A stretch of DNA of 64,000 nt from Candidatus Goldiibacteriota bacterium (GCA_938034975.1 CALHNI010000006.1:7790-71789), one strand, 5' to 3'. Counted from the stretch's first letter, positions 49,905 through 52,099 are shown. Program-made: numbers and translations. The notes: a model not told the origin generated them from the sequence alone.

Positions 49905-50984
49905 TTAATTTTTTAGTGATGTGTTTTTTATAAAAGGTGGTTTTACAATCCTGCCTATTATTTCTGGTTTTTCTTTTCCTAAAAAAATTTCATTATTTTC
50001 TTTTGCATATTTTTTTAAAACATAAGCCATTCCGATTCCACAATTTAAATGTGGAGAAAAAACACCACTCGTTACATATCCTACTTCTTTTTCATCAATA
50101 AATACTTTGCTATTATGTCTCATAGTTTTTCTTCCATTAACTACAAAACCGCATAATAGGTAATTTACTTTATGATTGAGTAATTTTTCTTTGCCTGCAA
50201 ATTCTTTTTCAAAATCAATAAATCTTTCCAGACCAGCATCAAGAGGAGTTATTTCTTCTGTTAATTCGTCGCCATACAACGGATAACCCATTTCTAAACG
50301 CAAAACATCTCTTGCTCCCAAACCAGCTGGTTTTACATCAGCAAAATCCAATAAAAGATTCCATATTTCTTCTGATTTTTTGGAATCAATATAAATTTCA
50401 TACCCAAGTTCTCCTGTGTATCCTGTCCTGCTTATGATATATGAACCGTTTAAAAAGTTAAATTCATCAAAGGTATAATACTTTAAATTATTAATTTTTT
50501 CACCTGCAATTTTTTTTACTATATTCCTTGAAAGCGGTCCCTGAACATCTATTTTCATTGTTTTTTCTGAAATATTTTCAAAAAAAGTTTCTTTTGAAAT
50601 TCTTTTTTTTATAATCTCTTCATCTCTTTTTTCATTAGAAGCATTTACAACAATCATCCATTCATCTTTTTTTATTTTATAAACTATAAGGTCATCAATA
50701 ATTCCACCGTTCTCATTTAAGAGAAACCCGTATTTACATGTTTTTTCTTTCATTTTAATAACAGGAACTGTTGTTACTTTATCAAATGAAGAATTTTCAG
50801 GATTTTCTTTTATTAAAAATTCGCCCATATGAAAAATATCAAAGATGGAAACTTTTTCTCTTGTATGTTTTGTTTCTGCTAAAATACTCCCATAATGAAC
50901 TGGCATATCCCATCCAGCAAATTCTATCATCTCCGCATTAAGTTTTAGATGCAAATTATATAAAGGAGTTCTTTTATTTTCCAA
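49905..50984 (-). CDS. gcvT: Aminomethyltransferase (glycine cleavage T protein)
   Basis: RTPLY..H...A.M..FAGW.MP..Y N-terminus. TTG start preceded by AGGAGA. Confidence 0.93.
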   Translation of the reverse strand: MENKRTPLYNLHLKLNAEMIEFAGWDMPVHYGSILAETKHTREKVSIFDIFHMGEFLIKENPENSSFDKVTTVPVIKMKEKTCKYGFLLNENGGIIDDLIVYKIKKDEWMIVVNASNEKRDEEIIKKRISKETFFENISEKTMKIDVQGPLSRNIVKKIAGEKINNLKYYTFDEFNFLNGSYIISRTGYTGELGYEIYIDSKKSEEIWNLLLDFADVKPAGLGARDVLRLEMGYPLYGDELTEEITPLDAGLERFIDFEKEFAGKEKLLNHKVNYLLCGFVVNGRKTMRHNSKVFIDEKEVGYVTSGVFSPHLNCGIGMAYVLKKYAKENNEIFLGKEKPEIIGRIVKPPFIKNTSLKN

Positions 50985-51010
50985 AATTTTTCTCCTAAAA
51001 AATTTGCATT

Positions 51011-51039
51011 ATTTTATAATAGCATAAATTTAAGGTCAA
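51011..51039 (-). promoter_or_regulatory. sigma70-type promoter for the gcv operon (TTGACC-N17-TAAAAT)
   Basis: Minus-strand TTGACC at 51039-51034 and TAAAAT at 51016-51011, 13 nt from repeat H. Confidence 0.6.
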
Positions 51040-51052
51040 GGAAAAATTACTA

Positions 51053-51228
51053 CCCTAAAAACGCGTTTTTACGGAAAAACAAAATTTTTTTATTATTTTT
51101 ATTTAATTTTAAAATGCATTACTTTTATTCACTAGTTTTTTTAATTTAAAATAAAACATGTGGGTTGTTTTAAATTTTTTTGTTTAATATTATTTTAAAT
51201 TACAATTTTCAATTGCACAGTTTTCAGG
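51053..51228 (+). repeat. Double-hairpin intergenic repeat, copy H
   Basis: Collapsed 22-bp palindrome ccctaaaaacgcgtttttacgg at 51053-51074, conserved core, degenerate 3' hairpin ending ..gttttcagg at 51228. Confidence 0.8.
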
Positions 51229-51307
51229 TATAATTTTAATTTTAAAAAATGTATAATAGATTTTTAAAATTCAATTATACTACAAAGAAGTGCCAATATT
51301 ATAATAA

Positions 51308-51393
51308 GTGTCGCCGCCATATTTTTTAGGCGTGAGCCATTTTCATGGCAAATGATATAAGGGGGTATATCTAAGAAAAGTAGGCGGCGACAT
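51308..51393 (-). ncRNA. Candidate structured small RNA (unclassified)
   Basis: 11-bp GC-rich closing stem (GTGTCGCCGCC / GGCGGCGACAT) encloses two hairpins. On the minus strand these are GAUAUA-[CCCCCU]-UAUAUC and GCCAU-[GAAA]-AUGGC (a GNRA loop). It is a GC island in AT-rich DNA. Confidence 0.35.
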
Positions 51394-51444
51394 CTATGTC
51401 ATTTTTTTTGTCAATTATCATATATTTTTTTAAATATCATTTTA

Positions 51445-51473
51445 ATTTTAAAATATAATTTAAATTTTGTCAA
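51445..51473 (-). promoter_or_regulatory. Orphan near-consensus sigma70 promoter (TTGACA-N17-TAAAAT) pointing at the structured element
   Basis: Minus-strand TTGACA at 51473-51468 and TAAAAT at 51450-51445. The predicted start lies about 45 nt upstream of the stem at 51393. Confidence 0.45.
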
Positions 51474-51757
51474 ATGTTTTTTAATATGAAAATATTTTCC
51501 ATAAATTGGGTTTTATTTTGCCTTTATTTAGTAAAATAAAATTGAACATTTATTGTCATAATTGTTTTTACGTAAAAATTTACTATGTGTCATTTGAATG
51601 GTAATTTATTTATTTTATGGATTTTTATTAGTATTAGTTTTTATAAAAATATAAAAAACTATTTAGAAAATGCGTTTTTATGGATAAAACATAAGTATTT
51701 TTTTAAAATTTTAATTTGTATAATTAATATATTTCATTCTTAATTTTTCAAAAAAAT

Positions 51758-52099
51758 TGGTGGAGGCGGTGGGAGTTGAACCCACGTCCGAACCTGCTTT
51801 AGCAAAGGCTCTACATGCTTATTCTGGATTTTGATTTCGTATTATAAACTCCTCCAGACAGGATTTTATAATACTACTCTCTGTAAATCTTTTCGGATTA
51901 GTCCAGAGTAAAACTAAATCCGAGCAACCTGCTTTTGGTCCCCTTTGCTTCCTCGCAGGTTAAGAAAACAAAGAGGTGCTGCTTTTAAGCAGCGATTGCG
52001 TAATTTTCAGCGATTAATTTAACCCGACTTTTTACAGGGAATCGGAACCTGGCATGCACCTTTTGCCTACACGAGACCCGTCGAATCCAAAACGCCCCC
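51758..52099 (-). ncRNA. ssrA: tmRNA
   Basis: 5' end GGGGGCGTTTTGGATTCGACGGG. Tag ORF GCT GAA AAT TAC GCA ATC GCT GCT TAA encodes AENYAIAA. 3' tRNA-like end ..GGGTTCAACTCCCACCGCCTCCACCA. Adjacent to smpB. Confidence 0.92.

Follow-up and report, generated by a model that had tools for sequence, protein, structure and literature searches.

A conserved family of three-way-junction RNAs beside the glycine-cleavage operon in a single order of a candidate phylum without cultured members

What occupies the spacer between the tmRNA gene and the glycine-cleavage operon in this Candidatus Goldiibacteriota genome, and how is it related to the operon downstream? In the window, i.e., the whole 64,000-nucleotide stretch of DNA analysed here, ssrA (51758 to 52099, minus strand; tmRNA, 200.8 bits) lies upstream of gcvT (49905 to 50984, minus strand; aminomethyltransferase), which heads the operon gcvT-gcvH-gcvPA, and smpB is among the confirmed flanking genes. 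An earlier note on this DNA had pointed to a GC-rich three-stem element in between, upstream of ssrA's neighbor gcvT where many bacteria carry a glycine riboswitch, and had read it as a structured minus-strand RNA with its own promoter. We confirmed that the three-stem element is real, and a comparison across genomes backs the reading as a structured RNA. It is a new, well-conserved family of small structured RNAs, which we encountered in no more than a single order of a candidate phylum without cultured members. Most likely, only the family is new and the kind is a known one, a small regulatory RNA with C-rich seeds, with a minority chance that it forms a new class of cis-regulatory element.

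A three-way junction in the spacer between ssrA and gcvT

The element folds as a three-way junction at 51309 to 51392 on the minus strand, with a folding energy of -31.2 kcal/mol compared to -14.3 ± 2.6 kcal/mol in shuffled sequences (z = -6.6; none of 200 shuffles equalled it), and the plus-strand fold of the same 101-nt stretch reaches z = -5.3. In plus-strand letters, positions 51308 to 51393 run from GTGTCGCCGCC to GGCGGCGACAT and enclose gccat-tttc-atggc (51336 to 51349) and gatata-aggggg-tatatc (51354 to 51371), which are the two hairpins that had been described with a GAAA and a CCCCCU loop, respectively, both as read on the minus strand. The closing stem had been given as 11 base pairs (51308 to 51318 with 51383 to 51393), of which the 10 Watson-Crick pairs stand and make up helix P1 of the window copy (51309 to 51318 with 51383 to 51392), while the G-U end pair exists on the plus strand only and the pair 51308/51393 reads C.A on the minus strand. 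No open reading frame of at least 30 amino acids overlaps 51000 to 51500, in agreement with the earlier view that the element is not coding.

Read 5' to 3' along the minus strand, the locus begins with a predicted sigma-70-type promoter (51445 to 51473) composed of the -35 element TTGACA (51473 to 51468), a 17-nt spacer and the -10 element TAAAAT (51450 to 51445). This is the best promoter-like site of the region with 11 of 12 consensus matches, as had been proposed, and would start transcription around 51438. An A/U-rich 5' leader of ca. 45 nt (51394 to 51437), whose sequence differs between families, leads into the 5' arm of P1, UGUCGCCGCC (51383 to 51392), with the A at 51393 facing an unpaired C at 51308 in the window copy. 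It is followed by the pyrimidine tract J1/2 (51372 to 51382), which reads UACUUUUCUUA in the window and is unpaired in the minimum free energy structure, and by the P2 hairpin GAUAUA-CCCCCU-UAUAUC (51354 to 51371; loop 51365 to 51360), which is nearly invariant in the RNA family. The short strand J2/3 (AUUU; 51350 to 51353), as delimited by the alignment, connects P2 to the P3 hairpin GCCAU-GAAA-AUGGC (51336 to 51349), which is variable in length and sequence across the family and usually carries a GNRA loop. The last junction strand, J3/1 (51319 to 51335), consists of UCACGCCU and then an A-rich stretch, AAAAAAUAU, before the 3' arm of P1, GGCGGCGACA (51309 to 51318), closes the junction. Beyond P1, the U/A-rich tail UUAUUAUAAUAUU (51295 to 51307) looks like a degenerate terminator tract at the place where relatives carry five to seven U residues (U5-U7) or a separate terminator hairpin, and a signal scan of the region found no canonical terminator after P1 of the window. 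The RNA is flanked by AT-rich spacers (51040 to 51300 and 51480 to 51757) that carry repeat relics, e.g., TTTTTACGTAAAAA and "repeat copy H", and place ca. 270 nt between the RNA and the gcvT promoter, which is more than in most relatives.

The earlier note had matched the element to none of the consensus features of glycine, purine, c-di-GMP, fluoride, ZTP or hammerhead RNAs, and indeed a cmscan search of 50950 to 51800 against Rfam 15 returned nothing over the element at E ≤ 10. Searching 16 homologous loci at E ≤ 1 gave tmRNA and noise only, and both gathering and permissive thresholds applied to the window and 19 related loci retrieved only tmRNA, tRNAs and noise. The glycine riboswitch (RF00504) had no match in the window's own genome and none in any of the 24 genomes of its order, though it scores above cut-off in three genomes of the sister family f12. 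Since the latter carry canonical tandem glycine riboswitches before gcvH-gcvPA, the window's order lacks the usual regulator of this pathway. The three f12 loci (L076, L077 and L078 in genomes G053, G060 and G065) each have tandem RF00504 matches of 46 to 49 bits. A divergent SRP RNA or 6S RNA was ruled out because both are found elsewhere in the genome, and a hammerhead ribozyme was rejected given that there is no Rfam match and that the junction is formed by UCACUCCUCUA, AUUU and UCACGCCUA(A)n as opposed to the CUGAUGA...GAAA core.

Distribution, covariation and strand of the RNA family

A BLAST search with 121 nt against 60 relatives matched most families of the window's order at 77% to 92% identity, and several genomes have two copies ca. 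165 nt apart. The window's order is represented by 24 genomes, in 17 of which covariance model R1 detected the RNA, compared to none of 75 genomes elsewhere in the phylum, and the broader model R2 added no further members within the order; E-values of such home-built models are rough, and the genomes are metagenome-assembled (MAGs). Scanning 185,579 species genomes for exact 18-mers gave the window's lineage and chance matches only, with true matches in MAGs labelled as candidate division FCPU426, Candidatus Goldiibacteriota, "uncultured Spirochaetia" and, in one case, "Ca. Methylomirabilis". The same kind of scan in metagenomes contributed five new variants and otherwise yielded this lineage and chance matches. 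We note that a MAG of the same genus with 92% identity at the locus (L032; DYJU01000053.1) is labelled "Candidatus Methylomirabilis sp." and that the labels of relatives differ and look inconsistent.

Genomes with the RNA have one to four copies, and its locus is fixed and syntenic across 10 families. This synteny and the single copy in the window's own genome speak against a DNA-level element, i.e., a mobile-element remnant or an integration site beside ssrA, as could be suspected from the location among repeat relics downstream of tmRNA, a common integration hotspot. Given also that substitutions obey the pairing rules of RNA, including G-U pairs on one strand, we find this explanation scarcely credible.

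The structure is borne out by covariation. Using a model-fitted alignment of 33 copies (31 of them distinct), in which the fitting itself favours the structure, we found that 96.6% of cells pair across the 31 distinct copies and that double compensatory changes occur at 13 of the 22 pairs. The covariation score of 0.320 compares to 0.115 ± 0.010 for shuffled alignments, none of which reached 0.320 in 500 trials, and pairing drops to 24% to 54% when the 3' partners are slid by one to three columns. An independent MAFFT alignment has 92.4% of cells paired and 10 pairs with double changes, and RNAalifold independently predicted the same three helices. The search for homologues with compensatory changes that the earlier note had recommended therefore turned out in favour of the element, with strong covariation in P1 (double compensatory changes at eight of 11 pairs) and in P3 (four of five pairs, alongside variable length). 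P2, an 18-nt hairpin, is essentially invariant in stem and loop across the 31 copies and 10 families. The paralogues of genome G004 (see below) have a wholly different P1, GGGCUCCG/CGGAGCCC (also as AAAGGGCUCCG/CGGAGCCCUUU). Of the junction strands, J1/2 and J3/1 are both conserved, the former (UCACUCCUCU or CUUUUCUU) as UCACUCCUCUA in most A units and as UUUCUUUUCUU in B units and the window copy, and the latter as CAC(G/A)CCU followed by an A-rich run, with the CAC(G/A)CCU motif kept in all copies including paralogues.

Several features tell the two strands apart. Counting G-U cells gives 19 for the modelled minus strand versus nine for the opposite one, and nine versus zero in P3 alone; one position of P1 shows the series U-A (16 copies), U-G (seven) and C-G (six). 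P3 loops on the minus strand read GAAA (10 copies), aGAAAu (three) or cGCAAg (three). Based on these wobble pairs and GNRA loops, together with the near-consensus sigma-70 promoters that precede the RNA and the terminators that follow it, the minus strand of the window is, by its sequence signals, the RNA strand. A plus-strand reading had some appeal because, on that strand, the stem is followed by ACUAUUUUUUU in most copies and because the U-rich and purine-rich junctions could then pair via G-U. We rejected it since the G-U wobbles in P1 and P3 and the GNRA loops favour the minus strand, where the consensus promoters and canonical terminators are also located, and since there is no conserved plus-strand promoter.

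We further observed that an A tract before P1, AAAAAAAUAG, is conserved in most A and B units (e.g., L003 1590 to 1600; window 51394 to 51415). On the opposite strand, this amounts to P1 followed by U7 and thus to a good intrinsic terminator for antisense transcription. In addition, many units have an RCGGC motif 25 to 35 nt upstream.

Transcription signals and the relation to gcvT

Promoters are found upstream of the RNA in other genomes as well, and in every lineage examined the site is near-consensus, TTGACA-N16/17-TATAAT or a close variant. The distance from promoter to P1 is 10 to 95 nt across homologous loci and 45 to 95 nt for gcvT-linked copies. Six loci (L008, L009, L011, L012, L014 and L016) are organized in tandem with an A unit, a gap of ca. 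70 nt and a B unit, and at L013 the two units lie on either side of ssrA, ca. 1.2 kb apart. A clean intrinsic terminator follows the B unit at L012, L014 and L016, L015 and L106 have a separate one behind their single A unit, and at L002, L093, L017, L073 and L074 a run of U5-U7 comes directly after P1 so that P1 itself forms the terminator. The window (UUAUUAUAAUAUU) and the copies of family f10 have this arrangement of a G+C-rich stem and a U tract in degenerate form. By its promoter and terminator signals, the RNA thus appears to be a transcription unit of its own.

G004 has four copies, including three extra stand-alone paralogues (L073, L074 and L075) away from gcvT. All three have a different P1, a U6-U7 tail and the C-rich motifs of the family, with P2 loops that are altered (CCCUC, CCCUUC) and still C-rich, and L074 and L075 are devoid of P3. 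A promoter lies ca. 15 nt before P1 at L074 and L075, and we identified none at L073, which is preceded by the terminator-like hairpin of the upstream gene. L073 and L075 adjoin paralogous lipoprotein genes (N-termini MNKQKVLMV...CKSHNPSAI..., DNDFTFxLY motif; serpin-like by eye), which suggests that the sRNA gene was copied along in a segmental duplication.

Could the element then be nothing but a large, bidirectional intrinsic terminator that isolates ssrA, gcvT and antisense transcription from each other? The strong G+C pairing of P1 with an A tract upstream and often a U-rich tract downstream would indeed provide such signals in both directions. For this role, however, an invariant 18-nt hairpin, conserved junctions, a covarying GNRA-capped P3, a separate promoter and tandem duplication would all be superfluous, and we regard it as very unlikely.

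The relation to gcvT is close in position. The gcvT gene is present throughout the order (24 of 24 genomes), and in genomes with the RNA the main copy is always located upstream of it on the same strand at a distance of 0.1 to 3 kb. Between the two, nearly all loci have a conserved promoter, CTTGAC-N17-TATAAAAT, for which the consensus across the order is CTTGAC-N17-T(G)TTATAAAAT and thus extended -10-like. In the window, it reads TTGACC-N17-TAAAAT (51011 to 51039, minus strand). The same promoter is found directly after a coding gene in five genomes without the RNA (G005, G009, G014, G022 and G023) and is kept at L112, L115 and L117 to L120. In family f3 (L006, L010 and L085), the RNA and gcvT have a convergent Xan_ur_permease gene between them, though the RNA still scores 95 to 96 bits there and is among the best-scoring copies. 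Where genes other than gcvT lie downstream, they are unrelated in function (a PMT_2 glycosyltransferase, an SBF symporter). Based on this gcvT promoter, the genomes without the RNA, the convergent permease gene, the stand-alone paralogues and the unrelated neighbours, the comparison of loci shows that the RNA would not be needed in cis for gcvT. The link between the two may be functional or merely reflect inherited gene order.

These results also bear on the hint, given by the position upstream of gcvT, that the element might work like a glycine riboswitch, which the data do not bear out as a mechanism in cis considering that gcvT has its own conserved promoter and that the RNA also stands alone. 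More generally, the RNA could be an attenuator or riboswitch-like leader, with the junction binding a metabolite (glycine, a folate or other one-carbon compound, or something else) or a protein and thereby gating termination at P1 and the U tract, and could in this way be the functional stand-in for the canonical tandem glycine riboswitch in this order. The constant place of the main copy, the highly conserved junction nucleotides, the tandem three-way-junction units reminiscent of the tandem glycine riboswitch and the distribution of RF00504 (absent from the order's 24 genomes, tandem in sister family f12) would all suit such a leader. So would two loci where the RNA sits in a 5' UTR and which both fit a cis attenuator: at L093, P1 and U7 lie 47 nt before the Shine-Dalgarno (SD) sequence of gcvT with only a degenerate promoter remnant in between, and at L017/L064, P1 and U5 lie 45 nt before the PMT_2 gene with no clear promoter in between. 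In most loci, however, the gcvT promoter is downstream of the RNA, as are separate terminators, and the orphan paralogues have no associated gene, two of them with the junction pocket lost together with P3. Furthermore, 10 to 11 G+C-rich pairs make P1 too stable for a ligand-gated helix, and no antiterminator pairing is conserved across families. We had considered RCGGC pairing with the 5' arm of P1 as an antiterminator and rejected it, given that it comprises only five to six pairs and is absent from family f1 and the paralogues. Overall, a cis-acting leader seems rather unlikely to us. Its most specific form is unlikely, namely that the junction would be the sensor of a new cis attenuator, be it a riboswitch or a protein- or RNA-gated terminator, in the glycine riboswitch's place, with the terminated product also serving as an sRNA and the paralogues derived from a riboswitch.

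Other elements were seen around gcvT in individual genomes. At L008 and L009, a terminator-like hairpin, CGCGGGUUUCAGCCGCGGGUUUUU, is located ca. 60 to 30 nt before gcvT in the short 5' UTR after the gcvT promoter and might in families f7 and f8 act as an attenuator of its own. At L117 (G020), the region 90 to 300 nt upstream of gcvT has a different putative small RNA without Rfam match that comprises a promoter (TTATTGACA), a segment rich in G (AGAGGGGCAGAACGGGCACGGGGAAGG) and, as a clean terminator, GCGCCGCAAC...GUUGCGGCGUUUUU. In G021 (C121:24261-25272), gcvT matches in two pieces (residues 3 to 205 and 222 to 358) and may be frameshifted or split, and toxin-antitoxin-like small open reading frames lie between the RNA and gcvT.

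Candidate sibling small RNAs and their known counterparts

The explanation to which we give a somewhat better than even chance is that 51309 to 51392 on the minus strand is one gene copy of a trans-acting, base-pairing "sibling" sRNA with C/U-rich seeds resembling anti-SD sequences. The RNA would be transcribed from its own near-consensus sigma-70 promoter and fold as a three-way junction in which P1, the long G+C-rich closing stem, together with the U tract would double as intrinsic terminator in several members. Its C/U-rich motifs, with J1/2, P2 and J3/1 proposed as seeds 1, 2 (or recognition hairpin) and 3, respectively, would then pair with purine-rich ribosome-binding regions of mRNAs and block translation initiation. 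J1/2 is the part in which tandem siblings (A and B) and extra paralogues mainly differ, and they might in this way widen the range of targets. From these sequence features we infer expression, action in trans, SD pairing and the identity of targets.

At least two C-rich, SD-complementary motifs are unpaired in the consensus structure, with the C-rich parts being the P2 loop CCCCCU, J1/2 as CACUCCUCU and J3/1 as CAC(G/A)CCU, and paralogous copies share these seeds as would be expected for siblings, though the window's genome itself has one copy. SD usage in this genome is canonical, with GGAGG enriched 65-fold and AGGAG 37-fold upstream of start codons, and the J1/2 strand of A units (CUCCUC) would consequently be complementary to ordinary ribosome-binding sites. 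We calculated duplex energies of the three unpaired segments against 1564 crude initiation regions of the same genome, among which gcvT ranked 259th, and the scan singled out no target. The top match was an internal site in a chorismate-synthase-like open reading frame, and the top matches altogether look like generic SD matches or false starts arising from crude gene calls. Genes with the rare SD variants GGGGG or AGGGG in this genome have no obvious common function.

Against the sRNA reading stand the modest rank of gcvT in the duplex scan, the failure to find Hfq or CsrA in the window's own genome, the two 5' UTR loci described above and the P2 stem, whose invariance exceeds what a seed in its loop alone would need. 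A stem and loop that are invariant in 31 copies while P1 and P3 covary are typical of a sequence-specific recognition site, and the RNA might thus be a stable non-coding RNA that does not act by pairing, with P2 and the junctions as platform for a protein, e.g., as decoy or sponge of a regulator or for a ribosome-associated factor. The near-consensus, constitutive-looking promoters and the multiple or tandem copies, as in decoys of the CsrB type, would be in line with this idea. On the other hand, neither CsrA nor Hfq was found in the window's own genome (84% complete), GGA motifs are absent, and the changes in paralogue P2 loops that leave them C-rich are a better fit to pairing seeds. We give a protein-binding platform a minor though appreciable chance.

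How does the proposed sibling sRNA compare to known systems? The tandem glycine riboswitch (RF00504) shares with the new RNA the niche upstream of glycine-cleavage genes and the units built as three-way junctions, often in tandem. It differs in that its model has no match and its conserved core is not recognisable in the new RNA, that its units are joined by a short linker while those of the new RNA are ca. 70 nt apart, and that a promoter and terminators lie between the new RNA and gcvT (with L093 as exception), with a P1 that is long, stable and terminator-like. Enterobacterial GcvB (RF00022) is likewise an sRNA gene tied to the glycine-cleavage regulon. It is encoded beside gcvA, depends on Hfq and uses a G/U-rich seed against C/A-rich sites, in contrast to the C/U-rich seeds, the gcvT neighbour and the lack of any detected Hfq or model match for the new RNA. 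Streptococcal csRNAs, which depend on cia, comprise several paralogues of ca. 90 to 100 nt with consensus promoters and an anti-SD-like CCUCC between stems. The csRNAs differ by their two-hairpin fold and lineage, with the new RNA having no Rfam 15 match at E ≤ 10.

To the best of our knowledge, hardly any regulatory RNAs have been described from candidate phyla without cultured members. The family described here has unusually clean comparative support, with 31 distinct copies, two covarying helices, a defined strand, promoters and terminators, and can enter RNA-family databases. It is fixed in position beside the glycine-cleavage operon of a lineage without glycine riboswitch and offers a starting point for testing post-transcriptional control in these organisms, both by metatranscriptomics and in heterologous systems.

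Counterparts in proposed mode of action are found in two other groups of bacteria. RsaE/RoxS has C-rich motifs in duplicate that it directs against SD regions, and in Staphylococcus aureus it lowers the mRNAs of gcvT-gcvPA-gcvPB, of folate metabolism and of the TCA cycle (PMC6158497). Like the new RNA, RsaE/RoxS (RF01820, Bacillales) is a stand-alone RNA of ca. 100 nt with C-rich motifs in a loop and in single strands and with a terminator that ends in a U tail. However, they show no similarity in sequence or model (no RF01820 match over the element at E ≤ 10), belong to unrelated phyla, and only the new RNA is wholly enclosed by the P1 of a three-way junction. In Neisseria, the tandem siblings NgncR_162 and NgncR_163, both sRNAs, target ribosome-binding sites and repress gcvT, gcvP and gcvH (PMC13104608). 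We detected no homology to these sRNAs, whose genes are located away from gcvT and which act together with a canonical glycine riboswitch that the window's order lacks, and pairing to gcvT is unsupported by the duplex scan for the new RNA. Taken by analogy, the RNA family of this order could nevertheless be a convergent case of C-rich, anti-SD sibling sRNAs tied to one-carbon metabolism, as are RsaE in Bacillota and NgncR_162/163 in Neisseria.
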